The notes beneath the pieces are model-generated. The model searched no databases, had not been told where the DNA came from, and saw nothing but the letters and a program-made list of their open reading frames with translations. Position numbers and translations under genes: made by a program. Positions 4,149 through 63,290 of a stretch of 64,000 bases of DNA are shown in pieces. The DNA lies in sequence record OR896837.1, one strand, 5' to 3'. This DNA is from Escherichia phage vB_Eco_mar004NP2. Numbering within the stretch: position 1 is the stretch's first letter; each line of letters starts with the position of its first letter.

Positions 4149-4240
4149 TGAATGGGATATTTTTATAGCTTAGTCTGGCACTTGGTGTTATATATATGTT
4201 GATACGGTTGAGTATGATACGTTCTTAGAAAGGAACAAAA

Positions 4241-12706: not shown

Positions 12707-13486
12707 ATGAAAATCGAAATTCCAACACAATGTCCCTCTTGTGGTTCTAAGCTAGATCTTGTCAACGGACAATTATTCTGTCGGAATAAGTCCAACTGTC
12801 CAGCGCAATCAAGTAAGTTAATTGAGAACTTCTGTTCAAAAATGAAGTTAAAGGGCTTTGGCCCAAAAACTATTGAGAAGCTGGAGCTGACGAAGATTTC
12901 AGAACTATTTTACCTAACCGAAGAAGATTTGGTTAGAGCCGTGGGTAGCAAGGTTGCCGCTAAGTTAATTAGCGAATTAAATACTAAAGTTCGCGGAGAC
13001 ATTGACTTTGGTTCAGTTCTCGGTTCTTTAGGAATCCCTCTAATTGGAGAGGTTGCAGCAAAGAAATTATCCCAAAATTACACTAGCTTCCATGATGTGA
13101 AGGCTGACGGCAAGGCTGGAGAAAATTACAAAGCCTGGCTAAATTCCCCACAAGGCAAGGATGTTATCGAACTACCGTGGAAATTTTCAACTGGTATTAA
13201 GGGCACTAAAGCTGACGTCATCATTACAGATGAATTAGTTGCCCAGCCAAATGGAATCGCGGTATGTATTACCGGATCTTTGCAAGATTTTGCAAATCGA
13301 ACGGATGCAACAAACTATTTAGAAGGTCTAGGGTATACGGTTAAGAAATCCGTTACTAAAGACGTCAAATACCTAATCTGTGAGGATGAATCAAAACGTT
13401 CTTCCTCATCTTATAAGAAAGCCGAAACGAATGGGATAGAAATCCTGTCGATTAAAGAACTATTGGAGAAAAATAATAATGTCTAA
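12707..13486 (+). CDS. NAD-dependent DNA ligase, C-terminal subunit (Zn finger, HhH, BRCT; split ligase, part B)
   Basis: ORF track 12704 (TTG); ATG 12707 preferred; CPSCGSKL...CRNKSNC zinc finger then helix-hairpin-helix-like and BRCT-like C-terminus. Confidence 0.8.
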   Translation: MKIEIPTQCPSCGSKLDLVNGQLFCRNKSNCPAQSSKLIENFCSKMKLKGFGPKTIEKLELTKISELFYLTEEDLVRAVGSKVAAKLISELNTKVRGDIDFGSVLGSLGIPLIGEVAAKKLSQNYTSFHDVKADGKAGENYKAWLNSPQGKDVIELPWKFSTGIKGTKADVIITDELVAQPNGIAVCITGSLQDFANRTDATNYLEGLGYTVKKSVTKDVKYLICEDESKRSSSSYKKAETNGIEILSIKELLEKNNNV

Positions 13487-14246
13487 ACTGAACTGGAACG
13501 TAGAAGGTGTAACCGAGTCTCTGAAAGCAAAAGCCACTGCTCTGGGTGTTGCTGTAATCTCTCAAGAACAAGTAGCTGCTATCGCTGCTGAACTGGCTGC
13601 TGAAACTGGCAAAGACGTTACCGCTCGCTCTGTTGGCTCTAAGCTGCGTAAAGAAGGTTTTGAAGTACAAAAAGCTAACGAAGTACAGAAATCCCCGTGG
13701 ACTCCTGAGCAGGAAGCTGAACTGGTTGATTTCCTGAACGCTCATGCTGGTCAGTATACCTATGCTGAAATCGCTGCTGCTGTAGCTGGTGGTCAATTTG
13801 GTGCTAAGCAGGTACAGGGTAAGATCCTGAGTCTGGAAATGACCGCCTCTGTTAAACCAACTGAAAAAGCTGCTGCTGTTCGTTCCTTCACTCCTGATGA
13901 AGAAACCGATTTTGTTAATCAGGTTGTTGCTGGGGCTACTATTGAAGCTATCGCTGCTCACTTCGGTCGTAATATCAAGCAGATCCGTGGTAAAGCTCTG
14001 AGCCTGCTTCGTGAAGGTCGTATCGCTGCTATGCCGGTACAGGAAACTTCAAGTGCTAAAACTCGTGAAGATCTGTTAGAAGGTCTGGATCTGGCTAACA
14101 TGACTGTTGCTGAGATCGCTGAGAAAACTGGTAAATCTGAGCGCGGTGTTAAATCTATGCTGTCTCGTCGTGGTCTAGTTGCTAAGGACTATGATGGTGC
14201 TGCTAAGCGTGCTAAACTGGATGCAAAAGCTGCGGCTGCTGAATAA
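13479..14246 (+). CDS. Highly expressed protein with three internal ~50-aa repeats (function unknown, possibly DNA-binding)
   Basis: ORF track; strongly biased codon use (GCT/CTG/GGT/CGT); repeats built on TPEQEAELVDFL / TPDEETDFVNQV / TREDLLEGLDL; followed by a strong terminator. Confidence 0.6.
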   Translation: MSKLNWNVEGVTESLKAKATALGVAVISQEQVAAIAAELAAETGKDVTARSVGSKLRKEGFEVQKANEVQKSPWTPEQEAELVDFLNAHAGQYTYAEIAAAVAGGQFGAKQVQGKILSLEMTASVKPTEKAAAVRSFTPDEETDFVNQVVAGATIEAIAAHFGRNIKQIRGKALSLLREGRIAAMPVQETSSAKTREDLLEGLDLANMTVAEIAEKTGKSERGVKSMLSRRGLVAKDYDGAAKRAKLDAKAAAAE

Positions 14247-14263
14247 TCTGGTAAATTAAACCT

Positions 14264-14296
14264 AAGGGGAGGGGGCTATGCTCCTTCCCCTTTTTT
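14264..14296 (+). terminator. Rho-independent terminator
   Basis: 12-bp GC-rich stem (aaggggaggggg / ctccttcccctt) with 5-nt loop then TTTTTT. Confidence 0.65.
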
Positions 14297-14317
14297 GCAT
14301 TTAGAAGGCACGAAAGC

Positions 14318-15802
14318 GTGCAAAGGAGAATGACCTTGTTTAACGTGCAAGCTGTAGTGTTGAAGATGCTTCTTGCTTCTGAACAGAAGCAAATAGCATT
14401 GGAAACATTCTCAAAACTGCATAAAGATCATTTTAATGACGCTTTCTCCTCAATTTACCAAGCCGTCCAGAATTATTATAAAAAATATAACACAATGCCG
14501 TCCATTGACGCACTTATGCTTGAAGCTAATAGGAACGCCCGCCTTTCTCAAGCTCTAGTCGTCTTAGCTAACACTCAAATTCCAGAAGTGAGCATGGAAC
14601 AGGCACTTGAAGTCCTAGAGGCCGAATATACACAAGATTTATTCCTAAAGCTTCTAGAAACAGATGTGCTTCAAGATTTAACAATGCTGGATCAGGGAGA
14701 AATTCTCAACCGAGTTGCCTCCCTTCACTTAAAATTAGAAGAGAAAGTAACGAATACTGGAAAAGTATTCAACGCAGATAACATGCGTATTTTCCAGAGA
14801 GAAGAAGATACCAAACTGAACTTAATCGCTCTTGGTATTTGTAATGAGTTCGACGCTCAAATTGGTTTAGCTCGCACAGAAACGTTACTGCTTGGTGGTT
14901 GGCGTGGTACTGGTAAATCCATTATCTGTTCAAACATACAGGTTCAGCAATATTTGAATGGAGATATTGCTCCATACTTCTCAATTGAGATGAAAGAACA
15001 TGAAGTATTTAGACGTAATCTAGCCATGTTAGCTGGTGTATCAGCATTAGCAATGCGTAATAATACTCTAGAAGGTGCAGCTCTGTTGAGATTGGCCAGA
15101 ACTAGAGCTAGGATGTTCAACGGGGGTGAGGAGCTTTTCGATAACTTCGTTAAACAGTATACAATGGCTAAGATGAGTGATTTCTACGATATGGAGAGTA
15201 AGCTAATAGAAGGATATGAGCTACATACTCCTATGATTATTGTTTATGACCCTGAGCTGTCCATTACAACAGTTGACGTAGAATTAAATAAATTAGTTGC
15301 TAGATACGGAGATAAAGTTACAGTAGCTTTACTGGACTATATTAACCAAACCCGACTTCCAGACTCTAAAACCATTGATATGTATGACTGGAAAGAACAG
15401 ATGGTTGTCAGCTCGTCTTTCAAATCTATCTGCCAGAAACATAACGTGGCTGGTGTAGCTCCTTACCAGATTGATCAAGATGGTAGAACACGTATGTCAA
15501 AGGGGATTCTTGATTCCGCAGACATGGCTGCTAATCTTAATGCTGCAAAAGCTGATAATGGTCAAGGTGCTATTATGTTTGACTTCGTTAAGACCCGTTC
15601 TTCTGATAGCGTGAAGTTTATGCCTAAAATGAACTGGGAAACCCTGCGGATGGATAACACTATCAACCTAGCAATGGAAGATATATCTCAAATGGAAGCT
15701 GAGTTCGTTATCCCTATTGAGAAGGATAAGCCGGCTCAATCTAAACGTGCTAAGAAAGACAAAGCTGAAAATTCAACAGGTGAACAGGCCAGCGATATAT
15801 GA
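14318..15802 (+). CDS. DnaB-like replicative DNA helicase
   Basis: P-loop LLGGWRGTGKS and DnaB-like ALLDYINQ block; start GTG 14318 or ATG 14330 uncertain. Confidence 0.7.
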   Translation: MQRRMTLFNVQAVVLKMLLASEQKQIALETFSKLHKDHFNDAFSSIYQAVQNYYKKYNTMPSIDALMLEANRNARLSQALVVLANTQIPEVSMEQALEVLEAEYTQDLFLKLLETDVLQDLTMLDQGEILNRVASLHLKLEEKVTNTGKVFNADNMRIFQREEDTKLNLIALGICNEFDAQIGLARTETLLLGGWRGTGKSIICSNIQVQQYLNGDIAPYFSIEMKEHEVFRRNLAMLAGVSALAMRNNTLEGAALLRLARTRARMFNGGEELFDNFVKQYTMAKMSDFYDMESKLIEGYELHTPMIIVYDPELSITTVDVELNKLVARYGDKVTVALLDYINQTRLPDSKTIDMYDWKEQMVVSSSFKSICQKHNVAGVAPYQIDQDGRTRMSKGILDSADMAANLNAAKADNGQGAIMFDFVKTRSSDSVKFMPKMNWETLRMDNTINLAMEDISQMEAEFVIPIEKDKPAQSKRAKKDKAENSTGEQASDI

Positions 15803-16689
15803 GTAGAATAACAGAACTACTTGATCTGAAAGGCATTGAGTATAAAGACACAGGTGGGGACATCCTCATCTGTTGTCTCAATCCAGATCATGACGATAAA
15901 CATCCAAGTTTGCGTATTGATCCTGAAACAGGTATTATGCACTGCTTGAGTTGTGGCTTCGGTAAAGGTATACCGAGCATTTACCATTATTTTAATGAGA
16001 CTCAGTACCGACAGTCTCCAAGACTATCGCAGGTACGTAAAAAGATTTCAGAGATTAGGAATGGATCTACGAATCTTGCAATTCCTGAATCTGCTTACCT
16101 TTTCGAAGGTGATTTCCGAGGTATAAGTTCTAAGACCTTGAAGAAATATTTTGCTTTCCAACACCAAGCAGATTGGGAGGGCAGAATTGTATTCCCAATC
16201 ACAGATGCTGTTGGACGCAATATCCTATTTTTGGGTCGTTCTATAAACAGTTCTGCCCCTCCTAAATACTTAGTAAAACCAAAACAAGTTTCACCACCGA
16301 TTTTCCCTGTACGATATAATACTCCAGTTCTTATTCTAGTTGAAGGTATCTTTGATATGCTGAACCTAGAGGATAATGGTATAGACTATGCTTCTTGCTG
16401 CTTTGGTACACATCAGTTTACTTCGGATAACATTGCAGATAAGTTCAGTCCTTATATTATTGCTGGTGTAAAAGTTGTTGTTATCTTACTAGATAATGAT
16501 GCTTCTGGTAATAAAACTGCACAAGCATTGGCTAAGCTAATTCGTACAAAAACGCGTTTAACACCTGTAGTTGCTAACTTTCTCCTACCTGAAGGCAAAG
16601 ATCCAGGTGATTTAAACAAAGATGAAATTGATATGTTAGCAAAACGTATTGAAATTTTAGTTGCTGAATCGCTTAAAGATTTGGTATAA
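15799..16689 (+). CDS. DnaG-like DNA primase
   Basis: CHC2 zinc finger (CCLNPDHDDKHPSL...CLSCGFGKG), TOPRIM-like LVEGIFDMLNL and LLDNDASG; ATGA overlap with helicase stop. Confidence 0.8.
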   Translation: MSRITELLDLKGIEYKDTGGDILICCLNPDHDDKHPSLRIDPETGIMHCLSCGFGKGIPSIYHYFNETQYRQSPRLSQVRKKISEIRNGSTNLAIPESAYLFEGDFRGISSKTLKKYFAFQHQADWEGRIVFPITDAVGRNILFLGRSINSSAPPKYLVKPKQVSPPIFPVRYNTPVLILVEGIFDMLNLEDNGIDYASCCFGTHQFTSDNIADKFSPYIIAGVKVVVILLDNDASGNKTAQALAKLIRTKTRLTPVVANFLLPEGKDPGDLNKDEIDMLAKRIEILVAESLKDLV

Positions 16690-21545: not shown

Positions 21546-21629
21546 ATGATGTATAATAATATACATAAATTTGAGAGAGAAAGTTTCGGATTGATAAGAA
21601 AGTCCGAAGCAGAAAAATAAAAATTTTAG

Positions 21630-25653: not shown

Positions 25654-26136
25654 ATGGCTGTAGATAGTAGAGAGAAAGGTAAACGTGGTGAATATCAGGT
25701 AAGAGATATTCTACGCGAGCGTACAGGTCTTGAGTGGGAACGTGTTCCTGGCTCTGGTGCTTTTGGCCAGAGCCACGGACTGAAAGGTGACATCTACCTT
25801 CCACCACAAAGCGGACACATTAGTAAATACTGCTTCGAAGTTAAGTGGTATAAAGATGATAATATATCAAGTAATTTATTTAATGTCGGTGAATCCACTC
25901 TAGAGAAGTGGTGGCAGCAATGCTCACGTGAAGGTGAGCAGATGAACTCCAAGTCTGCATTAATATTCAAAAAAGACAGAGGACAGTGGTTAATAGCTTT
26001 GGATAGCGCAGACCCGATGGTTGACAACTTAATGAGTCGTACCCATATGGTGTTAAATAAGAAAGACATGGAAATCGTAATTGGTTTATTTGAACCGTGG
26101 CTACATCATGCATCTGTTGAGGACTTAATTAAATAA
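25654..26136 (+). CDS. Putative PD-(D/E)xK-type nuclease
   Basis: GDIYLP ... CFEVKWYKD arrangement resembles a D...ExK active site; weak. Confidence 0.45.
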   Translation: MAVDSREKGKRGEYQVRDILRERTGLEWERVPGSGAFGQSHGLKGDIYLPPQSGHISKYCFEVKWYKDDNISSNLFNVGESTLEKWWQQCSREGEQMNSKSALIFKKDRGQWLIALDSADPMVDNLMSRTHMVLNKKDMEIVIGLFEPWLHHASVEDLIK

Positions 26137-27011
26137 TGAGTAAATCCTGGGGAAAATTTATTGAAGAAGAGGAAGCTGAAATGGCTTCCCGTCGTAACCT
26201 AATGATTGTTGATGGAACTAACTTAGGCTTCCGCTTCAAACATAACAATAGTAAAAAACCATTTGCCTCAAGTTATGTTTCCACTATTCAGTCTCTAGCA
26301 AAATCTTATTCTGCTAGAACTACAATAGTTTTAGGGGATAAAGGAAAGTCTGCATTCCGCCTAGAGCATCTTCCAGAGTATAAAGGGAATCGAGATGAGA
26401 AATACTCTCAGCGTACGGAAGAGGAAAAAGCGTTAGATGAGCAGTTTTTCGAGTATTTGAAAGATGCTTTCGAACTATGTGAAACTACATTCCCAACCTT
26501 CACTATTCGTGGTGTAGAAGCAGATGATATGGCAGCTTATATTGTTAAGCTGATTGGGCATCTATATGATCATGTTTGGCTAATTTCTACCGATGGTGAC
26601 TGGGATACTTTATTAACTGATAAAGTTTCTCGCTTCTCTTTTACAACACGTCGTGAATATCATCTTCGTGATATGTATGAGCACCATAATGTTGACGATG
26701 TAGAGCAGTTTATCTCTCTGAAAGCAATTATGGGTGATTTAGGGGATAATATCCGTGGTGTTGAAGGTATTGGGGCAAAACGCGGGTATAATATTATTCG
26801 TGAATTTGGTAACGTTCTGGATATTATTGATCAGCTTCCACTACCTGGAAAACAGAAATATATACAGAATTTAAATGCTTCGGAAGAATTGCTTTATCGA
26901 AACCTAATTTTAGTTGATTTACCTACCTACTGTGTGGACGCTATTGCTGCTGTAGGTCAAGATGTATTAGATAAGTTTACAAAAGATATTTTGGAGATTG
27001 CAGAACAATGA
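26136..27011 (+). CDS. D15: 5'-3' exonuclease / flap endonuclease (T5 D15 type)
   Basis: 291 aa; N-terminus and length match my recollection of T5 D15 exonuclease; FEN acidic clusters (DGTNL, EADD, DGDWD, GDLGDN). Confidence 0.95.
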   Translation: MSKSWGKFIEEEEAEMASRRNLMIVDGTNLGFRFKHNNSKKPFASSYVSTIQSLAKSYSARTTIVLGDKGKSAFRLEHLPEYKGNRDEKYSQRTEEEKALDEQFFEYLKDAFELCETTFPTFTIRGVEADDMAAYIVKLIGHLYDHVWLISTDGDWDTLLTDKVSRFSFTTRREYHLRDMYEHHNVDDVEQFISLKAIMGDLGDNIRGVEGIGAKRGYNIIREFGNVLDIIDQLPLPGKQKYIQNLNASEELLYRNLILVDLPTYCVDAIAAVGQDVLDKFTKDILEIAEQ

Positions 27012-27454
27012 TTAAAATTAAATTAACTCATCCAGATTGTATGCCTAAGATTGGTTCCGAAGATGCCGCAGGTATGGATCTGCGAGCATTCTTTGGTACA
27101 AACCCTGCTGCAGATTTACGTGCTATTGCGCCAGGCAAATCCCTAATGATTGACACCGGTGTCGCGGTAGAAATTCCGCGAGGTTGGTTCGGTTTGGTGG
27201 TTCCTCGTAGCTCTTTAGGTAAGCGCTATTTGATGATTGCAAACACCGCAGGGGTGATCGACTCAGACTATCGTGGTACTATTAAGATGAACCTCTATAA
27301 TTACGGTTCTGAAATGCAAACTCTGGAGAATTTCGAGAGACTTTGTCAGCTAGTGGTATTGCCACATTACTCAACTCATAATTTTGAAATCGTTGATGAG
27401 TTAGAAGAGACTGTACGTGGAGAAGGAGGATTTGGAAGTTCAGGAAGTAAGTAA
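27008..27454 (+). CDS. dut: dUTP diphosphatase (dUTPase)
   Basis: 148 aa; dUTPase motifs AAGMDLRA, PRSSLG, GVIDSDYRG. Confidence 0.9.
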   Translation: MIKIKLTHPDCMPKIGSEDAAGMDLRAFFGTNPAADLRAIAPGKSLMIDTGVAVEIPRGWFGLVVPRSSLGKRYLMIANTAGVIDSDYRGTIKMNLYNYGSEMQTLENFERLCQLVVLPHYSTHNFEIVDELEETVRGEGGFGSSGSK

Positions 27455-27478
27455 TCTACATATAAAATAAATAATAAA

Positions 27479-27513
27479 CCCCAGTGGATTTTGTCCACTG
27501 GGATTTTCTTTTA
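27479..27513. terminator. Bidirectional rho-independent terminator at the early/late boundary
   Basis: 9-bp stem cccagtgga / tccactggg with ttttg loop, T-runs on both strands, between convergent dut and tail-fibre genes. Confidence 0.65.
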
Positions 27514-28158
27514 TTGTGATACTAATTGTACCTTTAATTGCTCAAGCTCTTTCTCTAGATCTTCAATCCGTTTAATAAGATCTTGCACAACATGCATAGT
27601 GTCAAGAAGCATTGGAGTTGTATCTAATTCCTTTTGCTCCTGCTCTATTCCGTCATCATTATAAAATTTTCTAGTTTTTACATAAAGTGGTTCTATAGTC
27701 TCTACTTGCTGAGCAATAACCCCACGTCGGACACGAGATTTTTCATCGTTATTATATACAAAGGATTGGAATTCTAATCCTTTTAATACCTCGATGGACT
27801 TAGTTGCGTCTATAGCCTTAATATCATGCTTTAAGCGAGAATCAGATACAGCATTTAATTGCAAAGTATAGGTTGCTGAAGCACCTGGCCACCAAGAATA
27901 AAAATAAATACTATTATTATTCGGCTGAATTTTTAAACGCACACCAAATTTATTATCATCATCTCCCGCTACCTGCCAACAAGAATCTGCAAATGAGCCT
28001 AAGTCATTATGAATTAATCCAAAATGTGCAGATGTCTTATACCCTGCGGAAGAAGACTGGGAACCGCTCAATATACTATTAAAGTTAAATGTACTACCTA
28101 TATTGACCTCGTTCTGAGAAAGAGTACCTTGTACCCAGCCAGTCTGAGACCACGCCAT
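27511..28158 (-). CDS. Tail-fibre C-terminal segment with intramolecular-chaperone (S74-type) domain; likely 3' part of a frameshift-split fibre gene
   Basis: SDSRLKHDIKAI autocleavage-type motif then coiled-coil C-terminus; 17 open in-frame codons upstream of the ATG. Confidence 0.6.
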   Translation of the reverse strand: MAWSQTGWVQGTLSQNEVNIGSTFNFNSILSGSQSSSAGYKTSAHFGLIHNDLGSFADSCWQVAGDDDNKFGVRLKIQPNNNSIYFYSWWPGASATYTLQLNAVSDSRLKHDIKAIDATKSIEVLKGLEFQSFVYNNDEKSRVRRGVIAQQVETIEPLYVKTRKFYNDDGIEQEQKELDTTPMLLDTMHVVQDLIKRIEDLEKELEQLKVQLVSQ

Positions 28159-28177
28159 GCCAGTAACTAATCTAGCT

Positions 28178-28927
28178 TTAAAACGATCCGTTACAAAATC
28201 CCCATTTATCTACAAGCTGGGCGGAATTCGATTTACCGGTAGATTTATTGTCTATTAGTAGTTCAGTAGAGTAGGTGCCACCAATAGTAGCTTTAGCTCG
28301 TAGTGTACTTACAGCCTCACTACTAGTACCTACTTTATACTCAGATAGTACACTCCCGCCATAAACAGTAGTACCAGTATTAGGTTTGACAGCATCACCA
28401 CTAATAACACTCCACGAAGTCTTTGCAGCCACGAACCCACCAGAAGCACGGATTACCCAGACACCTATAAAGCTGTTTGGAATAATAGTACCTTTTATTC
28501 CATAACGCCCATAAACAGGGTCCGCTAAGTTTGCATCAAAACTAAATCCGTATTGGTTATCAGGATTAACTACGGCGAATGATTTAGATGCACCTCCAGG
28601 AGCGGCACCTAAGCCGTTTTCACCACCAATCGCCCCAATAAGACCAAATCTAGATGAATATCTATTAAGCGCTTCTTCATATGCACCAGCAATAGCGCCA
28701 GGAAAACTACCAGTAATATTGGGTGCTGCAGCTTCTGATATTGAACCAGCTTGACCAGCATCCCCCCCCCCCCCACCGTCACCACGAGCGAATAACCCTT
28801 TGATTGAATTTAGTTGCACACCATTACGATCTGGGACGCGGAAAGTAGTGGTACCATCTCCCGTAGAATATTTCCCACGTTGTCCTACATCTGCTAACCA
28901 AACTGAATCATCTATAGCTCCAACCAT
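28178..28927 (-). CDS. Tail-fibre middle segment with phage tail-collar-type domain and poly-Gly tract
   Basis: Frame is open a further 53 codons upstream of its first ATG with no start codon; the collar motif SDGQLLNRADWPELW lies upstream of the Met, TTFRVPDRNG downstream. Confidence 0.55.
   Translation of the reverse strand: MVGAIDDSVWLADVGQRGKYSTGDGTTTFRVPDRNGVQLNSIKGLFARGDGGGGGDAGQAGSISEAAAPNITGSFPGAIAGAYEEALNRYSSRFGLIGAIGGENGLGAAPGGASKSFAVVNPDNQYGFSFDANLADPVYGRYGIKGTIIPNSFIGVWVIRASGGFVAAKTSWSVISGDAVKPNTGTTVYGGSVLSEYKVGTSSEAVSTLRAKATIGGTYSTELLIDNKSTGKSNSAQLVDKWGFCNGSF
28762..28774. repeat. 13-nt C/G homopolymer inside the tail-fibre coding sequence
   Basis: Plus-strand C13 (G13 on coding strand) encoding GDGGGGGD in frame. 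Confidence 0.9.
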
Positions 28928-28986
28928 TTGTGCATACGCCCAAAGTTCAGGCCAGTCAGCCCTGTTAAGAAGCTGCCCATCAGAAA

Positions 28987-29283
28987 CTACCTCATAAGGT
29001 TGAATATACGCACGGCTATCTCGAAGATGAAAATCCCCACCCCGTAGTTCATAACACCATTCATTGTGGGTCCTACTGTGCCAGTATTAAGTTTGTTCTC
29101 CACCCAACGCTTAGTTGCGGCATCATAGTCACTAACAGGATCTCCAGCAAGAGGGGTAGATCCAATAGGACGCACATTTAGCCATGCTGCACGGTCTGCT
29201 AAGTCACTCAGGTTATTATTTTTATTAAGTGACTCATTTTTAAGTTTTGTAATATCCGTAGGAATTACTGTTTTAGTTACCAT
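28987..29283 (-). CDS. Tail-fibre N-terminal segment (frameshifted relative to the downstream collar-domain frame)
   Basis: Fibre-like N-terminus (DYDAATKRWVENKL); last ~15 residues look like out-of-frame read-through. Confidence 0.5.
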   Translation of the reverse strand: MVTKTVIPTDITKLKNESLNKNNNLSDLADRAAWLNVRPIGSTPLAGDPVSDYDAATKRWVENKLNTGTVGPTMNGVMNYGVGIFIFEIAVRIFNLMR

Positions 29284-29292
29284 TATAAAACC

Positions 29293-29571
29293 TTATGCCC
29301 ATACTCTAAGAGGCTGTTCTAGCTGAACTATAAAAGGCTCGAAGGATTCGTAAGTAAAGGATTCATCAAGAATCCTTACATTAATATAATACCCTTCATT
29401 ACGGATGCATCTAGGTTCCTCATCACCTAGCGGAGAGATTTCAGTATAAGTATATCCAATTTCGTCAAGCATTATTTGGTTTTGCAAATTTTCATTAGTA
29501 TCCCACTCTATTTTTAAGAGAAAATCTTTATATGCTGATTTATCCGTGAATTTTAGGATTATATCTCTCAT
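29293..29571 (-). CDS. Hypothetical protein between the two tail-fibre genes
   Basis: ORF track; ATGA overlap with upstream gene. Confidence 0.5.
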   Translation of the reverse strand: MRDIILKFTDKSAYKDFLLKIEWDTNENLQNQIMLDEIGYTYTEISPLGDEEPRCIRNEGYYINVRILDESFTYESFEPFIVQLEQPLRVWA

Positions 29572-31625
29572 ACATACTCCTTCATTTGTCTATCAGTTAG
29601 TTCCTTATGCCAGATTCTAAAGTTTCTAACGTGCCCGAAAAGATGACGTTCGCCCCTAGTTGTTTGTCCTCCAATCCTTATAGTAGCCGTTGATTGTATG
29701 TATCTCCATTCCGTTTTTGTTTCGCTTGATATTCTGGCATTACTTACACAGCAAGTATTGTAATCACTCTTTACTCTCATTCCCATGATCATCTTTTTTA
29801 GTTTTGCATTCTCGTAAACCCTTCTGTTTGATTTACCTATATCGCAATAAGGGAAACCATCATTATCGCCTTCGGCAGATCCGAAAGCAAGAATAATAGC
29901 CGCTTCGGTTTGATGACCTCTGGTATCAAAAACACGTGGCGCTGCACTTGGCGTTATACTCCAGTTTTTATGAGCTTCCACAAGTACTGTAAACGGCAAA
30001 TTGTAAAGGTTGTTTTTTATTGGTAATGTGACCATATCGCTTGCCCGTGTTACTGGAGTCTCTTCTGTAATAATAAACGATGAAGCGCACGCCCCGCCTT
30101 CAACTTGAGGGGTAGCTACCTGTAAGTACTCTCCACCAGAATAAGTGCCAGGTGAAACAGGTGGAGCAATTTGGATCTGAGAGCTAACCATATTATCAAT
30201 AGCTTCAGATTGATATGTAACCTCGAAATAAATCCATCCATTAGATTCTTTCTCCGCTCGGGCGGTTATTCTTGCAGCCCCTACTTCCGTTTTTCTAATG
30301 GACATATCTGTTATATTAAGATATGCATCTGCTAGATAAAAATATGCGGATCCGTCATATCTTTCAAATCTTATACGACATTGTATATTAGCACTATCGC
30401 TTTTTACACGACATGATGTTGTAACATACTTTTCAGTTCCGGTAACATCGACACCTCTTCCTCCTGAAATCGCAGCGATATTCATTGCCGTATTTGTCCC
30501 AATTTTTTCGTCCTTTATTTGAAACCGCCCATAAGTAAATCCAAACTCATCAACACCACTTTCTGTTATAGTTACACTTGTTGTAGCTTCCCACTTAGAT
30601 GGCGTAAGTGAGTTAAGATGATAGTTAGTTCTTTGCCCCTCAATGAGCAAACCATCCTTTTCAAATCTAGGTTCATTAATCCCCGCAACAGTTAATACAC
30701 CTGATTTATTAATATATGTCGCAGTTGATGCACGTGTAAAGCTAACAATCTTGTCACTGGGCAGTGTTATTTCCTCATCACCGACTGTTATTTTTTTTTT
30801 ATAGTCTGGCGCAAAGCCGGTGATCATATCTAGAGAATCGTTAAACGGTATCCATACATCTGGAAGAGGTTGAATGTCGGGGGTAGAATTAGCAGCAGCT
30901 TCTGATCTATCAGCCTCAGTTTTTGAACGATCGGCTTCAGTTTTAGCAGTATTAGCACTATTAGCAGCATTAGTAGCTTGTTTTCCTGCTTCAGTAGCAG
31001 AATTAGCAGCACTAGTTGCAGAATTAGCAGCTTGGTTTTTTAGCGTGGTAGTTTCTGTTATCGCGCTATTCTTAATGCCTTGTGTGTCTGTTTTTAACTG
31101 CGCAACATCTGCCTTTATAGCTGTTGTCTCTGTTACAGCACTGTTTTTAATGGCCTGAGTATCTGATTTTAGCTGCTCAACATCTGATTTTAAGCCTTGA
31201 ATAGTAGTTACTGACTGACTAGCTGAAGTTGCGGAACTAGCTGCGTTATTCTCACTAGCTTTGGCTTTAGTCTCACTAGCTTTGGCTTTAGTCTCACTAG
31301 CTTTTGCATTAGTCTCGGATACTTTAGCAGCGGATGCAGATGTTGCAGCTTGTCTAGCGAATGTTTCTGCTTCATCCCTAAAACCTTTAGAATTGGCAGC
31401 AGACGCAGCAGCATTAGTCTCACTAATTTTAGCGTTAGTTTCGCTAATTTTTGCAGCCGCAGCAGATTTAGCAGCAGCCTCTATAGAAGATACTAACTCA
31501 TTAGCAGTAATAGAGCTAATAGAATTTCCAAGAGTTACTGTGTATCTAGGAAATTTACTAGCAGTAGCTTTAGTATCATCAATATTTAATATTTGTTGTA
31601 CAATAATCTTAGTAGTTATTGCCAT
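29568..31625 (-). CDS. L-shaped tail fibre protein (T5 pb1-like N-terminus, Ala/Ser/Thr-rich repeat shaft, distinct C-terminal domain)
   Basis: N-terminus resembles T5 pb1 as remembered; repeat shaft SETNAKASETKAKASETKAKASE; 685 aa, far shorter than T5 pb1. Confidence 0.7.
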   Translation of the reverse strand: MAITTKIIVQQILNIDDTKATASKFPRYTVTLGNSISSITANELVSSIEAAAKSAAAAKISETNAKISETNAAASAANSKGFRDEAETFARQAATSASAAKVSETNAKASETKAKASETKAKASENNAASSATSASQSVTTIQGLKSDVEQLKSDTQAIKNSAVTETTAIKADVAQLKTDTQGIKNSAITETTTLKNQAANSATSAANSATEAGKQATNAANSANTAKTEADRSKTEADRSEAAANSTPDIQPLPDVWIPFNDSLDMITGFAPDYKKKITVGDEEITLPSDKIVSFTRASTATYINKSGVLTVAGINEPRFEKDGLLIEGQRTNYHLNSLTPSKWEATTSVTITESGVDEFGFTYGRFQIKDEKIGTNTAMNIAAISGGRGVDVTGTEKYVTTSCRVKSDSANIQCRIRFERYDGSAYFYLADAYLNITDMSIRKTEVGAARITARAEKESNGWIYFEVTYQSEAIDNMVSSQIQIAPPVSPGTYSGGEYLQVATPQVEGGACASSFIITEETPVTRASDMVTLPIKNNLYNLPFTVLVEAHKNWSITPSAAPRVFDTRGHQTEAAIILAFGSAEGDNDGFPYCDIGKSNRRVYENAKLKKMIMGMRVKSDYNTCCVSNARISSETKTEWRYIQSTATIRIGGQTTRGERHLFGHVRNFRIWHKELTDRQMKEYV
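31251..31313. repeat. Three tandem 21-bp repeats inside the tail-fibre gene
   Basis: ctcactagctttggctttagt x2 plus a degenerate third copy; encodes the KASETKA heptad-like repeats. Confidence 0.7.
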
Positions 31626-37683: not shown

Positions 37684-40600
37684 TTAAGAATTTCCTAATG
37701 TTTTCAGACTAGTACCGTTCTCATTCAGAGCTAATTCCACTGCGTCTCTTAGAGCACTACTATTACTAGAAGCAAACTCTCTAAAACTTGCAGCATCCAT
37801 AGCACTAATATTCAGGATGATAGGTCTTCCTGAAGTTGAGTTAGATGAGGTTTTTAGCTCATCATTAGGCGTAGCTTTCATAGGAACCATAGGGGTAACT
37901 ACTTCTGTACCATGCTCACCCATTTGATAGCTAACCCCAGGGTACATATTACCACCTTCGGCACGCGGCACAAATGAATTAGCATTACCAATACCTTGAT
38001 CACCACGTACATAAGATAGTTCTCCAGCATTAGCAGACATAGATACATCAATGTTCTTCTGACGCTCTCCAAGAGTTAAATAACTAGTGGTATCAGCTCC
38101 AGAATCTGCAATACTTGACATACTAGAGGCAGAGGATGCCTGCGCTAATGCCAGAGCACCTGCTAATCCTGCCGCTACCATCAGAGGGATAGAGAACGGG
38201 TATGGTACAGCTGTTGCTGCCTGCATAACTGCTACTGCAGTTTGGATGATAATCCGCTTCTTAGCTGCATCTTGTTGAATCTTCAGCTTTTCAGCTTCTA
38301 GCTTCTTCAATTTAGCTTTAGATGCTTCTGATTTACCATCACGTTTCTGCTCCGCTGCGATAGCTGCATCAATAGCACTAACCTGTTGACTAGTACTATA
38401 CTGAATCATAGAAGATACAGTTTGCATGCCAGAAGCAATCAAGGAGGTAGTATCTAGGGATCCCTGAGAGAACTGAATCATAGCGTTAGTTAAGTTACCC
38501 ATACTTTGAGCCACAGCGGTTGCTTCAGAATTTAATTCAGATAGCTTAGAGATTGCTTGGTCATAAGAAGCCATTCTATTTTGCATATCAGCAAAATCTT
38601 TATCTTCTCCAGATAATCCCGTTGTAGGAGTGTACACAGCACCTACAGAGGATCCTACCTGTTGTTGCATTTGAGCATTACGTTGCGCCGTTAAAGCAGA
38701 CATTTGAGCCCTTGTCTTAGCTATTTCAGCATTCCAGCGCATTTGCTCGTTAGCATTACCTTTGGTAAGTTCCTTCATCTGAGTATAAAAATCTAACTGC
38801 ATTTCCATTTTTTGCATTTCCCCTGCCAGAGGGAACATGGAAGTTAGAGTATTTTCAAAGGCTTCTTGCCTTTTACTGGTCATTTCAGCTTGCTGATCCT
38901 GACGGAATTTCCATATTTCACGTTCAATTTGAGCTTGAGAACGTCTAGACTGTTCAGCCTCTTTCTGTTTATCAGCCTGTTTTGTATACCATTCGTACTT
39001 CTCTTTTTCAATGGTCAATTCAAGATTTAACTGTGCTAGACGATACTGAGTATCTGTCATAGTACGGTTATTTAAGAGAGCTATCTCACGATCTACGCCA
39101 AGAATTTTATCTGTGTAATCCTTGACCTTCTTCTGAGCTTCCATACCCTGATTAGTAAGTTTAAGTTTCTCCAGCTGAATTTTTTCAATTTCTTTCTCAA
39201 CAGCTTTATTTCCCTGGTTTGTTTGAAGAACACGGCGTAAAGCAGCTTCTTGCTCTTCTAACTGTTGGAGTTCTAAACGTCTACCAGCTTCCTGAGCCTT
39301 TTCCTTATCCTTAGTTTGATTATACACATCAGCTATTTTCTGTTGAACTGCTAACTGATTTTTAGTTTCATTACCAGTTAGTTTAACATACTCAGATAGA
39401 GCCTGAGATGCAGTTTTCATTTCAGACAGGGTGTTATAACCCAGGTTAAGGTTTTTAACATATTCATCGGCACTCTTACCGGTACCTAAGGATAGAGATT
39501 CTATATTTTTTATAGCATCTGCCAAAGTAGCACTAGTTTTAGCAGCAGTATCTGTATTCTGAGCAACGTTCTGTATATCATTAGCTAAGTCACTAGCCGT
39601 TTTCTTAGTCTGATTGTACGCTTTCTGCTGCTCAGTTAGTCCTTTTAATACAGTAGAGTTAAAATCGTATACAGCATCAGGATCAGTAGTATCTCTCTGT
39701 AGATTAATTTGCTTCTGAAACTCTGGACTAGCCTTTGCAGCAGCGGCACCAGCAGCTTGATACGCTGATTTCCAAGCATTGAGATTCTCTGTAGAATCCT
39801 CTACTTCCTTACCAAGTCTAGTTACTTGTAGACCCATAGCTGCAGTTTCTGCTACAAATTGCTTATTGGCCTCCGAAGCACCTGCTGCTACAAGACCAAC
39901 AGGAATACCTTCACCAACTTGACGTATAGCTAATTTTGTATAGAAATCTGCTTGTTCCATTCGTTTATCAAACTCAGATTTTAGCTTATTACGCTTATCA
40001 AGAGATTCCTTATACATATCTAGAGCTTTATTATAGCCTTCTTCAGAAGCAGCTAAACTTAAAGCAACAGCACCAACGTTGGTAGGGTCTATCTGTCTAT
40101 TAGTTTTTTCTTGGGCCCTAGCTGCTTCAGCAGATATAGAAGCCTGAGATGTATAAAATACTGTGTTGATAGCATCAATTACTGGCCCTAAATACTTAGC
40201 AGCAGCTTGTTGTATTTTTCTTAGTGCAGCATCTGCATTAGCAGCAAATTGCTCCCACGGAGTTGCACGTAGTACTTCATCTAGGTAGCCAAAACGCTTA
40301 GTAGATTCAGCAATTACCGCGTTAGCGTATGCTTGTTGCTTCTGGAAAGTGGTAAGACTATTAACATTATATGTTATACCTGTGTTTGCAGCATTTAACT
40401 GTTTAGCATAATCAGCGTATGCATCATTAAGACGGATGGTGACACCCAGCTCATCCAGAAGTTCGATTTCTTGTTTAGATACGCCCTTAATTACACGGTT
40501 AAGTGCATCAGTCATATCAATGCCAAGAACAGCAGCCGCACGACGAGCTACTAAACCAAATTTATTAAGTTGTTCGGCATCAAATCCATAAGCAGATGCT

Positions 40601-41367
40601 GAAGATGCCTGTCTCATTGCTTCCTCAAAAGAAATAGCATATCCAGCAGCTTCTTGTAGTGATCTAGCAAGGGTCTGAACAGGAGTACCTGTCTGAGTAC
40701 CTACTATAACACCAAATTTTTCTAGACGATTTAGCTGATCACCTAGTTTAAGTTGTTCAAATGCTGATTGCAAAACGAAGATGTTGGAAGCAAGAGCTGC
40801 GTACATAATAGGTAGACTACCACCGATCTTAGCCATTGCCGCAAAATCACGAGTTGCACCACGTGCTGAACCAGAAGTATTACCAATAGCTCTAGAAGCT
40901 CTACCAGCGGCACCAGCAGTATCATTAAAACCCCTAGCTGTGCCACCTAATGCTCTATTAGTATCATATAATCTATCCTGGACTTTTTCTGTTGCAGCTG
41001 CAACATCATTACCTATTGTTTTAACAGATCTAGAAACTCCATCGAATCCAATTTCTAGTTTATCTGTCACTTCAATAAGCTGGATAGCTAGGTAATCTAG
41101 TTTATCACCAATATCATTAATAGATTTGGTGATACCAGCCATACCCCTACTAGCTTGCATTTTAGTAAGACTTTTTGCTGCTCTGTCTGCTGCCCTCTCA
41201 ATGGAATAAAGAGTTCTGGGCATTTTACCTAACTGCTCATTTGTCAGTTCGGAAGCAGCAGCAGCATTTTCCAACGCATCAGATACGTTTTCAATAGACT
41301 TTGCAGTACGAGTTGCTCCCTTCTGTTTAACGTCTATTAGTAATTCTCGTATTAGCTTATCAGTCAT
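37684..41367 (-). CDS. Tail tape measure protein (T5 pb2-like)
   Basis: 1227 aa, long coiled-coil-rich protein with hydrophobic segment near the C-terminus. Confidence 0.85.
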   Translation of the reverse strand: MTDKLIRELLIDVKQKGATRTAKSIENVSDALENAAAASELTNEQLGKMPRTLYSIERAADRAAKSLTKMQASRGMAGITKSINDIGDKLDYLAIQLIEVTDKLEIGFDGVSRSVKTIGNDVAAATEKVQDRLYDTNRALGGTARGFNDTAGAAGRASRAIGNTSGSARGATRDFAAMAKIGGSLPIMYAALASNIFVLQSAFEQLKLGDQLNRLEKFGVIVGTQTGTPVQTLARSLQEAAGYAISFEEAMRQASSASAYGFDAEQLNKFGLVARRAAAVLGIDMTDALNRVIKGVSKQEIELLDELGVTIRLNDAYADYAKQLNAANTGITYNVNSLTTFQKQQAYANAVIAESTKRFGYLDEVLRATPWEQFAANADAALRKIQQAAAKYLGPVIDAINTVFYTSQASISAEAARAQEKTNRQIDPTNVGAVALSLAASEEGYNKALDMYKESLDKRNKLKSEFDKRMEQADFYTKLAIRQVGEGIPVGLVAAGASEANKQFVAETAAMGLQVTRLGKEVEDSTENLNAWKSAYQAAGAAAAKASPEFQKQINLQRDTTDPDAVYDFNSTVLKGLTEQQKAYNQTKKTASDLANDIQNVAQNTDTAAKTSATLADAIKNIESLSLGTGKSADEYVKNLNLGYNTLSEMKTASQALSEYVKLTGNETKNQLAVQQKIADVYNQTKDKEKAQEAGRRLELQQLEEQEAALRRVLQTNQGNKAVEKEIEKIQLEKLKLTNQGMEAQKKVKDYTDKILGVDREIALLNNRTMTDTQYRLAQLNLELTIEKEKYEWYTKQADKQKEAEQSRRSQAQIEREIWKFRQDQQAEMTSKRQEAFENTLTSMFPLAGEMQKMEMQLDFYTQMKELTKGNANEQMRWNAEIAKTRAQMSALTAQRNAQMQQQVGSSVGAVYTPTTGLSGEDKDFADMQNRMASYDQAISKLSELNSEATAVAQSMGNLTNAMIQFSQGSLDTTSLIASGMQTVSSMIQYSTSQQVSAIDAAIAAEQKRDGKSEASKAKLKKLEAEKLKIQQDAAKKRIIIQTAVAVMQAATAVPYPFSIPLMVAAGLAGALALAQASSASSMSSIADSGADTTSYLTLGERQKNIDVSMSANAGELSYVRGDQGIGNANSFVPRAEGGNMYPGVSYQMGEHGTEVVTPMVPMKATPNDELKTSSNSTSGRPIILNISAMDAASFREFASSNSSALRDAVELALNENGTSLKTLGNS

Positions 41368-41380
41368 GTTTTATTTTTCC

Positions 41381-41415
41381 CAATAAAAAAGGCTCTGGGC
41401 AAATCACCCAGAGCC
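41381..41415 (-). terminator. Rho-independent terminator/attenuator immediately upstream of the tape measure gene
   Basis: Stem ggctctggg / cccagagcc then TTTTTTATT on the minus strand; shares the sequence TTTTTTATTGGGAAAAATAAA with the element at 46361-46388. Confidence 0.55.
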
Positions 41416-41450
41416 AAGCCTCATCGTGGAACGCCCATTGGAGGAAACTT

Positions 41451-41819
41451 TTACCGTGCACGAGATCTAGCATGTGGCTTAACGTTAGGAATCCTTCCGT
41501 TTTGCGGTTTATGCTTCTCAGCACGTTTACGTGCAGCATCTACAGCTTTAGCATCAAATATATTGATAATGTGTAGAACAAATTCTTTCTCTATAGGATC
41601 AGTAATCCCATAAATATCAAATAAAACACCTAGAGCAGCCTTATCTTTACCTATAAAGATAGGAAAGTCACCTGGTATGAAGCAGTCAATTAGACTGTTA
41701 TAAATATTCATACTAGTAGCCACAATAGGTGGAAAGTCTTCAAGTTCAACAGGCATGGCCTTAGGATCAGGCTCTATACCCATTGATTCACAAAGTATTA
41801 AATATTGTTGTTTAGTCAT
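41451..41819 (-). CDS. Hypothetical protein (possible tail assembly chaperone)
   Basis: Position between tail tube and tape measure genes; no motif evidence. Confidence 0.45.
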   Translation of the reverse strand: MTKQQYLILCESMGIEPDPKAMPVELEDFPPIVATSMNIYNSLIDCFIPGDFPIFIGKDKAALGVLFDIYGITDPIEKEFVLHIINIFDAKAVDAARKRAEKHKPQNGRIPNVKPHARSRAR

Positions 41820-51237: not shown

Positions 51238-51408
51238 AGAATCTCCTACACCCCATGTAGAGCATTAATTTTTCTTGTTTACGTTCTATTATGGGAGAAG
51301 TTCTCCCGATCAATGAATATAGTATACATAATCGTATCGAATTTGTAAAGGGGATTTTAAAATGCAGGAATGGGATACCAACTGAGTAGTATCCCTTCCT
51401 ATACTTAT

Positions 51409-52725
51409 TTATTTACCACGGGAAATAGAGTAAATTCCATAGCGCAGTGCATCACAAAGGTGAGAGTTAGCATCATGACGTGGTTTTTCACGTGATAATT
51501 TTTCTTCACCTTCTTGGAAATCCCATTTATAGTTCTGCAACGCATGGATTAATGAGGAACATGAAACATCTACAATAATCTTGCCTTGTTGGAATAGCGC
51601 TTGCAAGCATGCTAGGCCATCTAGGACAGATTTTTTAGCAGGGGCTGATGCAATTTCATGTTCATAAGCTAAGTCCTGGCGGAACTGAGCTGCCGCGGAG
51701 TCAACAAAAATACGATCAACTTTATAACGATCTATACAGTGCTGAATGTAAGCAGCATGCTGAGCTGTAGTTTTCTCCGCCTGCTGATACTCTTCTAATA
51801 CATAGTAAGTATCCGTATCGTAATGATACTTAATAGTAAGAACTGCTGTAGGATCACGATAACCAACGTCGATACCAAGCAACGTTTCGAATGCTTCATC
51901 ATCTTTAAAGAAATGACGCATACCCTTAAGGTCTTTAACATGGTCAATAGCATTGAAAGTATCAAAAATCTGACCTTCAAATACAGAGAAGTCAGCTTCA
52001 TATTCCTGGCGGAAGTAGTTTTTACTAACCGTACGACGTGCTTCTTCTATATCATTCAGGTCAGCACGAGGGTTATCACGATATGTACCATGAATAGATA
52101 CCCAGTTAGGCAACGTATCATCAAATCCGTAGGCGTAAAACTCTTTAAACCAGTTACCTCCACGAGGTGTGGAAATAAATAGAGCCTTAGAATTAGGTTT
52201 ATCTAGAGTAGGACGCAGCTGAACCCTGAAGGCATCACCACCCACATCGGAAATTGCCGCCTCGTCAAAGATGATAAAATCATATGAACGTCCAACCGCG
52301 GAGTCAGCCTGAGCAGCGGAAGCTAGTTTAAACAGAGAACCATTAGCTAACTCAATTTCCTTATCTTTAGCGTTCTCACGTTCAGTTTGTAGGCCATATT
52401 TTTTAATAAGACCACGAATCTGAGACCATCCGATGTTGGCCAGTGAATAGTTAGGAGCAACTACTAACACCTTCACATTAGGTTCCAGCAATTTTAGGAA
52501 CCCAAGAGTATATGCGATGAAGGATTTACCTACACGGCGTGATACACACGCCGTTACAAAACGATGTCTAGGATCCTCTAGAGCATTAATAATCGCTATT
52601 TGAGGACCATTAGGTGTAATACCTTCTTGTGCTAGTATTCCCGAAACAGGTAGACGAAAGAAACGTTTATCTATTCCGAAATCAATAACATCTACTGTAT
52701 TAACGTAAGGTCTTGATACTTCCAT
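51409..52725 (-). CDS. Terminase large subunit
   Basis: 438 aa; ATPase Walker A (ACVSRRVGKS) and nuclease half. Confidence 0.85.
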   Translation of the reverse strand: MEVSRPYVNTVDVIDFGIDKRFFRLPVSGILAQEGITPNGPQIAIINALEDPRHRFVTACVSRRVGKSFIAYTLGFLKLLEPNVKVLVVAPNYSLANIGWSQIRGLIKKYGLQTERENAKDKEIELANGSLFKLASAAQADSAVGRSYDFIIFDEAAISDVGGDAFRVQLRPTLDKPNSKALFISTPRGGNWFKEFYAYGFDDTLPNWVSIHGTYRDNPRADLNDIEEARRTVSKNYFRQEYEADFSVFEGQIFDTFNAIDHVKDLKGMRHFFKDDEAFETLLGIDVGYRDPTAVLTIKYHYDTDTYYVLEEYQQAEKTTAQHAAYIQHCIDRYKVDRIFVDSAAAQFRQDLAYEHEIASAPAKKSVLDGLACLQALFQQGKIIVDVSCSSLIHALQNYKWDFQEGEEKLSREKPRHDANSHLCDALRYGIYSISRGK

Positions 52726-62298: not shown

Positions 62299-63060
62299 AT
62301 GAGGCTATATAAACCAGGTAACGCAACCGTCTTAAAAGGTGCGCTGCGTAACCTGCTGGACGGTAGCAGAACAACCAGCATTAAACATTTTATTAACAAG
62401 GCTGAAACTATTCACCAAAACTTTTTTGGTGATTTCGATGCCTATGATATGAATAGTTTTCTACCGTTATATAAACAAGGGGCAACGCTTGTTTTATATA
62501 ATCAAGATTATCAATTGCTCACTAGTCGAGGGCCGGATACTGATTTCATAATCGTAAAAGGTAGCACAGTAAAAGCCTATGATACTGGGGCAGGCTTAGA
62601 AGTTTTTTCAATAGAAAATTATGAAGCCAACCCCAATGATCTTTATGATATTGAAAATTTTCTTGATTCATTTTGGCGTTATTTATCAGTTGGCTGGAAT
62701 CGGTCGGATTGTGACGGGTATCGTTTCGCGGCTGTAATGGCCTTTGATGATAACGGTAATTTTTTGTTACCGTCGGAAGTGTACCCTTATGTATATGAGG
62801 GGGATATTGAAAGCGCGGGCTTTTCTTTCTGGAAGGAGGAAGATCAGCCTATTGACAACACGGAAAAACATGCTGTAAATTCTAACACTCAAAGCGTTAA
62901 CACTCAAACTACTGAAAACAAAGGAAATAATACCATGACCAAGATCGCTAATATCGTTGCCGCTAATAAATCCGCTGTTGTAAATGCTGCAAAACTGGAA
63001 GCTGGCAAAATTGCATTGACTCAAATCACGAAAGTAGCGGCTAAAAACCGCCGTTTATGA
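62299..63060 (+). CDS. Hypothetical protein (253 aa)
   Basis: ORF track; SD gggagg upstream. Confidence 0.55.
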   Translation: MRLYKPGNATVLKGALRNLLDGSRTTSIKHFINKAETIHQNFFGDFDAYDMNSFLPLYKQGATLVLYNQDYQLLTSRGPDTDFIIVKGSTVKAYDTGAGLEVFSIENYEANPNDLYDIENFLDSFWRYLSVGWNRSDCDGYRFAAVMAFDDNGNFLLPSEVYPYVYEGDIESAGFSFWKEEDQPIDNTEKHAVNSNTQSVNTQTTENKGNNTMTKIANIVAANKSAVVNAAKLEAGKIALTQITKVAAKNRRL

Positions 63061-63290
63061 TTAAAGGTTATATTGATACGCCGATTGGTCGGGTAGTTAT
63101 TGCTAACCTGCTGAGCGTAGCGGTTGACCAGTACGCCCCGAATAACCAGAAAGCGAAAGCGGTAGCAGGCGCAGCTATGGAAGCGGCAATGCTAGAAATG
63201 GTGCAAAGTTTTAACATCGCTGAAATGATTGATGAAATGGTGAAAGGTATCGATATTTCTACTTTTACCACTAGCACCGAAAGCGAGTAA
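63057..63290 (+). CDS. Hypothetical protein (77 aa)
   Basis: ORF track; ATGA overlap with upstream gene. Confidence 0.45.
   Translation: MIKGYIDTPIGRVVIANLLSVAVDQYAPNNQKAKAVAGAAMEAAMLEMVQSFNIAEMIDEMVKGIDISTFTTSTESE

Follow-up and report, generated by a model that had tools for sequence, protein, structure and literature searches.

Probable slippage-driven expansion of a hypermutable poly-G tract in a decaying lateral tail fibre gene (ltfB type) of a T5-like phage

In Campylobacter, Neisseria and Haemophilus, slipped-strand mispairing in runs of G or C switches contingency genes on and off and thereby varies surface structures. A first-pass annotation of part of a T5-like phage genome (the window, meaning the whole 64,000-nucleotide stretch of DNA that we analysed) pointed to a run of 13 C residues within what it called a tail-fibre coding sequence. 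It proposed that slippage in this run could switch the fibre on and off or alter its C-terminal sequence, and warned at the same time that the length of the run might be a sequencing error. The question raised by this locus is whether the tract is a working switch, a mutational hotspot in a gene that is being lost, or a fault in the record.

28762..28774, coding strand minus: C13 homopolymer on the plus strand (plus-strand letters CCCCCCCCCCCCC), G13 on the coding strand

The run is bordered by T and A. Read on the coding (minus) strand, the region is CGT GGT GAC GGT GGG GGG GGG GGG GAT, or R-G-D-G-G-G-G-G-D; one GGT and four GGG codons make up the Gly5 of R-G-D-G5-D, and the initial G of GAT completes the run. 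The peptide GDGGGGGD reported in the first-pass annotation agrees with this minus-strand translation. Such a run is exceptional in the window, which has a G+C content of 39%. It is the only G/C run of at least seven nucleotides, and the only other run of any kind reaching at least eight is a T10 at 30791..30800. All five overlapping C9 matches that were observed lie inside the tract, compared with 0.10 expected from dinucleotide-preserving shuffles, and an i.i.d. model predicts just 6e-5 G/C runs of at least 13. GGG is the rarest glycine codon of the phage (12%), and GGG-GGG encodes none of the 62 Gly-Gly dipeptides in the other long ORFs; codon preference therefore does not account for the run. 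On neither strand does a promoter, terminator or Rfam feature cover the tract, and promoter-like matches occur at chance level.

The window belongs to a Tequintavirus (T5-like) genome that here is 99.3-99.4% identical to phages SPLA5b, mar004NP2, PMBT29 and KS_S14. The tract resides in the second of two lateral fibre genes.

27476..27506, between the convergent fibre and dUTPase genes: bidirectional terminator hairpin, at the 3' end of the fibre transcription unit
27511..29283, minus strand: ltfB-type lateral tail fibre gene, present here as three ORFs, 590 aa once two 1-nt indels are repaired in silico
29568..31625, minus strand: upstream lateral fibre gene, 685 aa here versus 796 aa in SPLA5b, mar004NP2, PMBT29 and Bas32

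In SPLA5b, mar004NP2, PMBT29 and JLBYU40 the fibre gene is intact as one ORF of 1770-1773 nt. Its protein matches residues 526-1076 of DT57C LtfA (PDB 8HQZ_d, E=2.8e-135) and, by blastp, both LtfA (1.5e-123) and LtfB (6e-118) of phage DT571/2, with 59% identity over 329 aa to DT571/2 LtfB (187-496). It ends in a Peptidase_S74 intramolecular chaperone (PF13884, 46.9-48.5 bits against a cutoff of 22). Annotations of relatives, together with Pfam LtfC and PB4 matches on the KS_S14 locus, place the gene in the order pb4-ltfC-fibre-fibre-dut; in relatives it is flanked by the convergent dut and, at the opposite end, by a 92-aa gene together with the large upstream fibre gene. The mar004NP2 gene, MAR004NP2_00162, has been named an ltfB orthologue (Michniewski et al., PMC6563131). 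Homology and position together mark the window's gene as ltfB-type, encoding a lateral tail fibre of a mar004NP2-like Tequintavirus. The first-pass annotation was thus right to place the tract in a fibre gene, but the 249-aa ORF around it is merely the middle fragment of a frameshifted 590-aa gene.

Upstream of the tract in the direction of translation lies a short motif that the first-pass annotation had assigned to a collar domain.

28820..28873, minus strand: collar-like motif KYSTGDGTTTFRVPDRNG, Pfam Collar positions 38-54 of 57

The motif scores 17.2-18.3 bits against Pfam Collar (PF07484), under the 24-bit gathering cutoff, and covers only the last ~17 positions of the model; the first Gly of the run, in the GGT codon, is 14 codons past its end. 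A homolog that is 47% identical (P0043) reaches 27.6 bits, which is above the cutoff. On these sequence comparisons the motif survives but the domain call does not: with 17-18 bits against a cutoff of 24, 'collar-like motif' is a fair name and a Collar domain assignment is not justified. The R-G-D-G-G sequence is kept in distant homologs, and both the sequence and the length of what comes after it vary. Two AlphaFold models have mean pLDDT values of 50 and 53.5, with values of ~35-45 at the Gly run, and a Foldseek search of the PDB with the low-confidence AlphaFold model returned no match with E<4. In the solved DT57C structure, 8HQZ, LtfA is represented by its N-terminal part alone, and the motif region is absent.

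In mar004NP2, PMBT29 and SPLA5b the fibre gene is otherwise intact, such that the tract alone could control it. This is not the case in the window. An alignment with six relatives reveals four window-specific length changes in the fibre gene and zero window-specific substitutions.

29185..29190, minus strand: (GCA)3 in all relatives, (GCA)2 here; private, in frame, loss of one Ala (DRAAAW to DRAAW)
29035..29038, minus strand: G5 in all relatives, G4 here (GGGGTGGGGG to GGGGTGGGG); private -1 frameshift
28762..28774, minus strand: G7 to G13; +6, locally in frame
28205..28207, minus strand: AA in all relatives, AAA here (GATAATGG to GATAAATGG); private +1 frameshift

The +1 change at 28207 brings back the original frame 831 nt downstream of the -1 change at 29038, and repair of both 1-nt indels in silico yields the 590-aa protein. 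As it stands, the gene is divided into three fragments; the deposited ORFs of the locus are WWD13551-WWD13555 on a 98,746-nt record.

28987..29283, minus strand: fragment 1, an ORF of 98 aa that begins at the native start and runs into a TAG owing to the -1 indel (NCBI WWD13553.1)
28178..28927, minus strand: fragment 2, a 249-aa ORF that holds the tract and begins at an internal Met, with no native start (NCBI WWD13552.1)
27511..28158, minus strand: fragment 3, a 215-aa ORF with the Peptidase_S74 domain (NCBI WWD13551.1)

Translation from the native start ends at codon 98, upstream of the tract, and G13 is 'in frame' solely relative to its local fragment. The first-pass picture of an intact, in-frame fibre coding sequence poised to switch is therefore unsupported here, since the -1 at 29038 and the +1 at 28207 break the gene. 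Given the stop at codon 98 and the flanking indels, an in-frame tract length has no consequence now in this genome: what is left is a decaying accessory gene whose untranslated remnant holds a probable slippage hotspot, not a working switch. The same gene is frameshifted at homopolymers in other T5-like genomes, namely KS_S14, NG_A1 (one break) and VSe12 (three breaks). Another homopolymer has grown in the upstream fibre gene, again in the window alone: A7 has become A10 at 30791..30800, which converts YKKI to YKKKI.

These lesions recur in a second assembly. Over window positions 25777..31274, a Logan contig of SRR27112525 (contig 10, 5498 nt) matches at 100% identity. G13, both frameshifts relative to the intact orthologues, the loss of 3 nt and the T10 are all present in it, and it runs unbroken through the tract. 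This identity does not support an assembly artefact as the source of the tract length. The contig excludes an assembler or polishing artefact, not a systematic read error, and it was probably built from the same reads as the deposited genome.

If the tract is prone to slippage, as the first-pass annotation held, its length should differ among relatives, and it does.

GGT GGT CAA: Bas32
GGT GGG GGA G (G5AG): JLBYU40, Lindwurm, WP85, PH204
G6: KS_S14 and the Logan contigs of two unrelated read sets, SRR31518524 and ERR11474195
G7: mar004NP2, PMBT29, phA11, phC17, IMG/VR contig L014, gut-metagenome contig L015
G10: SPLA5b
G13: the window and the Logan contig of SRR27112525

All of these states were read directly on DNA. 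For phC11 a 7-length state is given by the alignment span alone, and a G8 state is implied by a protein that no other length could produce (P0030; 421 aa, starting MTVGGDAGQ, on two contigs of up to 107.9 kb). The commonest state is G7. Scanning IMG/VR added a single true homolog (G7) besides two chance matches, a scan of metagenome contigs gave one homolog (G7), and a scan of genome contigs for tract homologs found none. A G6 in DT571/2 ltfB was considered as a homologous tract and set aside, as it comes from CGG GGG (Arg-Gly) codons and not from Gly-Gly codons.

The length differences occur among near-identical genomes. Over 1030 nt round the tract there are 0 substitutions among the window, mar004NP2, KS_S14, SRR31518524 and ERR11474195, which between them carry G6, G7 and G13, and SPLA5b (G10) is 2 substitutions away in the same stretch. 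The expectation of a uniform length across related phages, which the first-pass annotation had set against its own proposal, is thus contradicted. Since differing lengths are surrounded by no substitutions at all, the tract appears to change faster than point substitutions accumulate, and by this comparison it is the fastest-changing site in the fibre gene among near-identical phages. Length varies only where the run is uninterrupted; more distant relatives with G5AG or GGT-GGT show no variation. Between G6 carriers there are 2-5 substitutions, whereas ERR11474195 equals mar004NP2 over 2836 nt save for G6 versus G7, and for this reason G6 probably arose more than once.

What such changes would do to an intact gene can be calculated. 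In silico, the protein terminates at 222-225 aa with G6, G9, G12 or G15 and at 189-192 aa with G5, G8, G11 or G14. The G6 alleles of KS_S14, SRR31518524 and ERR11474195 indeed come with a 223-aa ORF, and the KS_S14 gene is annotated as separate ORFs of 223 aa and 306 aa. The proposal that tract length changes or abolishes the fibre product is accordingly borne out, in that off-frame lengths cut the fibre at about 190-225 aa and natural G6 alleles exist. The locus therefore presents the structural features of a contingency locus: a homopolymer of at least ~7 within an ORF, polymorphism among near-identical genomes, and lengths that truncate the product.

We consider it probable that G13 reflects slippage-driven growth of a hypermutable poly-G tract in a decaying ltfB-type gene. 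The tract would have originated when the Gly codons after R-G-D-G-G lost their interruption, passing from GGT GGT through GGT GGG GGA to GGT GGG GGG (G7). Strand slippage during replication would then alter its length, outpacing point substitution. Steps in multiples of three (G7, G10, G13) would add Gly to a Gly-rich, length-variable stretch past the collar-like motif, while G6 and G8 would shift the frame, remove the distal part along with the C-terminal S74 chaperone, and so give rise to an LtfB-less phage. Such a phage would be viable because T5-like phages require their lateral fibres on O-antigen-bearing hosts alone. On rough hosts they can do without them, and a DT571/2 mutant with an opal codon in ltfB lacks lateral tail fibres (LTFs) altogether and shows normal growth on laboratory strains (PMC4728585). 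In the window's gene, the accessory fibre would have been lost, perhaps because selection on the fibre was relaxed or negative as the phage was propagated, and the hypermutable tract would have drifted to its longest length so far.

The alternative that selection keeps the tract as a reversible on/off (or Gly-length) switch is, in our view, doubtful. We take an equally guarded view of the hedge it might provide, with fibre-bearing virions for O-antigen hosts and fibreless ones on rough hosts or under anti-fibre pressure. In its favour, off alleles (G6 and the putative G8) recur on slightly different backgrounds in independent assemblies, and the longer lengths 7, 10 and 13 are all in frame. 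After growth on C600, ~30% of DT571/2 clones are LTF-less (PMC4728585), and there are precedents for phage contingency tracts in the Fletchervirus polyG runs (7-11) and in T2 and T4 (bioRxiv 10.1101/2025.10.21.683753). However, the uninterrupted tract is limited to one shallow clade. Close relatives carry G5AG (JLBYU40, Lindwurm, WP85, PH204) or GGT GGT (Bas32), and the repeat therefore lacks long-term conservation across the lineage. Moreover, the window has this single G/C tract, repeats are reported to be under-represented (0.77x) in tail-fibre genes (bioRxiv 10.1101/2025.10.21.683753), and the two further, poorly reversible frameshifts here look like decay rather than switching. That the tract is a bona fide T5-like contingency locus, reversibly turning the LtfB branch on and off at high frequency, strikes us as rather unlikely. 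If it were one, the switch might extend to the entire lateral fibre, given that LtfA needs LtfB for stability.

It is unlikely, in our judgement, that the true tract is shorter (e.g. G7 or G10), that the flanking 1-nt indels are read-level errors and that the gene is intact, even though long G runs are difficult on every sequencing platform and the second assembly may share its reads with the deposited record. All four differences of the fibre gene from its relatives are repeat-length changes, and the 1.77 kb gene has 4 private indels against 0 private substitutions, where ~20 substitutions would be expected at the window-wide density, a figure to be read in light of the clustering of window-private substitutions in mosaic patches. 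Of the 11 private indel events, 4 fall within 2.8% of the window (binomial 1.7e-4), in a segment otherwise identical to mar004NP2, a concentration that is not fully explained. Neutral decay alone hardly accounts for 4 indels and 0 substitutions, since the A2 to A3 and (GCA)3 to (GCA)2 sites are not obvious hotspots. Nevertheless, the k-mer-based Logan contig is identical and unbroken at the tract, AA to AAA is atypical as a consensus-level error, the changes of +3 and +6 from G7 and of A7 to A10 are multiples of 3, unlike random miscalls, and independent laboratories and pipelines have deposited differing lengths. Global sequencing error was rejected by a whole-window comparison with SPLA5b, mar004NP2, PMBT29 and KS_S14, which revealed no general indel excess: the private indel:substitution ratio, 11:409 over 35 kb, does not differ from that of its sisters (p=0.53). 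The remaining private 1-nt indels are benign, at 14296 in a terminator T-run, at 21559 in an intergenic position, and at 63048 where a hypothetical gene is cleanly split with an ATGA overlap. It seems improbable that growth from Gly3 to Gly4 to Gly5 was selected as a longer hinge that alters fibre geometry or host recognition. The SPLA5b gene is intact with Gly4, the stretch past R-G-D-G-G differs in sequence and length among homologs, and the region is of low confidence in the AlphaFold models, but the sole Gly5 allele lies in a gene frameshifted on either side, so there can be no present selection for protein function, and exclusive use of the rarest Gly codon speaks for mutation rather than selection. 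Finally, RNA polymerase or ribosome slippage on G13 might yield mixed-frame products, and the one point in favour of such a recoding site is that runs exceeding the RNA-DNA hybrid permit transcript realignment. We regard this as highly improbable, given that the ancestral and commonest allele is just G7, that the alternative frames stop within ~20-55 codons with no recognisable domains, and that ribosomes from the native start never reach the tract in the window.

Poly-G and contingency tracts in phages are known already, and the tract described here is a further phage homopolymer hotspot in a host-recognition gene. The closest analogy is with Campylobacter Fletchervirus, where receptor-binding protein genes are described as carrying hypermutable polyG tracts of 7-11 G (Sorensen et al. 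2021, Cell Rep 35:109214, as cited in PMC10877375 and bioRxiv 10.1101/2025.10.21.683753). In both cases a G homopolymer lies inside a phage host-recognition gene and has length variants in and out of frame. Sub-populations have been demonstrated experimentally in Fletchervirus, whereas the evidence here is comparative; ours is also a single tract in an accessory fibre of a T5-like coliphage, and confined to one shallow clade. The contingency loci of T2 and T4 similarly consist of simple-sequence repeats of at least 6 in phage ORFs, which frameshift reversibly by polymerase slippage and raise reversion ~1000-fold (Gomez, Barrick and Waters, bioRxiv 10.1101/2025.10.21.683753). Unlike the present tract, they are mostly A runs (agt, rIIA) and are linked to evasion of host defence. 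Bacterial phase-variable homopolymers share with it the placement of a G/C run within a surface-structure gene, but occur in many genes of a genome, are conserved across strains and have been shown to be reversible.

Loss of a side-fibre gene by frameshift also has a parallel in lambda, where stf of lambda PaPa is inactivated in comparison with Ur-lambda (Hendrix and Duda 1992, summarised in PMC12617516). The propagated stock carries the frameshift, and the fibres speed adsorption and are dispensable for plaques. Lambda has one fixed frameshift and no long hypermutable tract, in contrast to the two frameshifts and the length-variable G run found here. The nearest relatives with characterised fibres are DT57C and DT571/2, whose LtfA and LtfB contain a homologous module and the C-terminal S74 chaperone (PMC4728585; PMC10713586; PDB 8HQZ). 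The genes occupy the same locus, between ltfC and dut, and the DT fibres are likewise dispensable on rough hosts and frequently lost. Unlike the window, the DT phages encode R-G-D-G-G in mixed codons with no long run at those Gly codons, the G6 from CGG GGG being all that DT571/2 ltfB has, and the molecular basis of their frequent LTF loss has not been reported.

T5-like phages, SPLA5b, PMBT29 and KS_S14 among them, are being assembled into collections for biocontrol and therapy, and it is the lateral tail fibres that set the range of O-antigen-bearing strains open to them. A tract that silently switches the fibre off, or a decayed fibre gene in a stock, would alter host range between lysates of the same phage, and annotation would wrongly list several short 'tail fiber protein' ORFs in its place, which is what the deposited record does. 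Should the contingency reading prove true, it would supply a molecular basis for the unexplained and very frequent LTF-less variants in this phage group, and populations could hedge between O-antigen-bearing and rough hosts. Reversible switching, if real, would extend phage contingency loci to the Demerecviridae, in a gene class reportedly depleted of repeats.

Besides the G13 run, the window has a second long homopolymer, which lies in the lateral fibre gene upstream of the ltfB-type gene: a T10 tract at 30791..30800, corresponding to A10 on the coding strand.

29568..31625, minus strand: upstream lateral fibre gene, 685 aa in the window

The coding strand reads TAT AAA AAA AAA ATA across this tract, whose length is private to the window. 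A7 is present at the same site in the related T5-like genomes SPLA5b, mar004NP2, KS_S14, PMBT29 and JLBYU40 and in two Logan contigs (assemblies of public raw reads covering the fibre locus), and the +3 change gives the protein one extra Lys (YKKI to YKKKI). The protein also varies in size: its length is 796 aa in SPLA5b, mar004NP2, PMBT29 and the further relative Bas32, whereas JLBYU40 encodes 790 aa and KS_S14 557 aa. These differences correspond to a variable repeat region rich in Ala, Ser, Thr and Lys (AKASETKAKASE...), and the Logan contigs break off in this region too.

Repeat changes are found elsewhere in the window as well. The (AT)n dinucleotide repeat at 4197 is shorter by 10 nt than its SPLA5b counterpart, and there are window-private 3-nt repeat changes at 34722 (+GCT) and 48552 ((CTG)3 to (CTG)2). 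Private substitutions are grouped in patches at 14000-16500, 37950-41700 and 51400-51700, a mosaic or recombinant pattern relative to the SPLA5b/mar004NP2/PMBT29 group, whereas the ltfB segment is identical to that group.

A hairpin at 14255..14296 (GGGGAGG...CCTTCCCC) is followed by T6 in the window versus T5 in relatives, and together hairpin and T-run look like the terminator of the gene at 13479..14246. Because the start codon annotated in SPLA5b and mar004NP2 for a DnaB-like helicase falls in the loop of this terminator-like hairpin, that start has probably been placed too far upstream. At 62299..63290, a hypothetical gene of 330 aa in relatives is divided into ORFs of 253 and 77 aa; the cause is the loss of one nucleotide at 63048 (A6 to A5, accompanied by a substitution), a change private to the window. 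The two ORFs share an ATGA overlap, and the pair may represent a viable two-gene arrangement instead of a broken gene.

Among other T5-like phages, DT571/2 (KM979355.1) carries G6 at nt 968-973 of ltfB, built from the CGG GGG codons of the R-G-D-G-G motif and the only homopolymer of at least six nucleotides within its ltfA or ltfB. Clones of this phage without lateral tail fibres reached about 30% on C600 (PMC4728585). The ltfB-like genes of VSe12 and NG_A1 are four 1-nt indels apart, every one in a C4/5 or T5/6 run; the gene has three frame breaks in VSe12 and one in NG_A1. In total, the ltfB-type fibre gene is frameshifted in at least four deposited T5-like genomes (VSe12, NG_A1, KS_S14 and the window).

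One Ala is lost in frame at 29185..29190 (DRAAAW to DRAAW), in a part of the LtfB N-terminal segment that is conserved. In DT57C, a 3-bp deletion that arose spontaneously and took out one Ala (A198) abolished infectivity on the phage's O-antigen host (PMC4728585), although that change affects LtfA rather than LtfB and the sequence contexts differ. Going by this phenotype, loss of a single Ala can matter for the function of these fibres.
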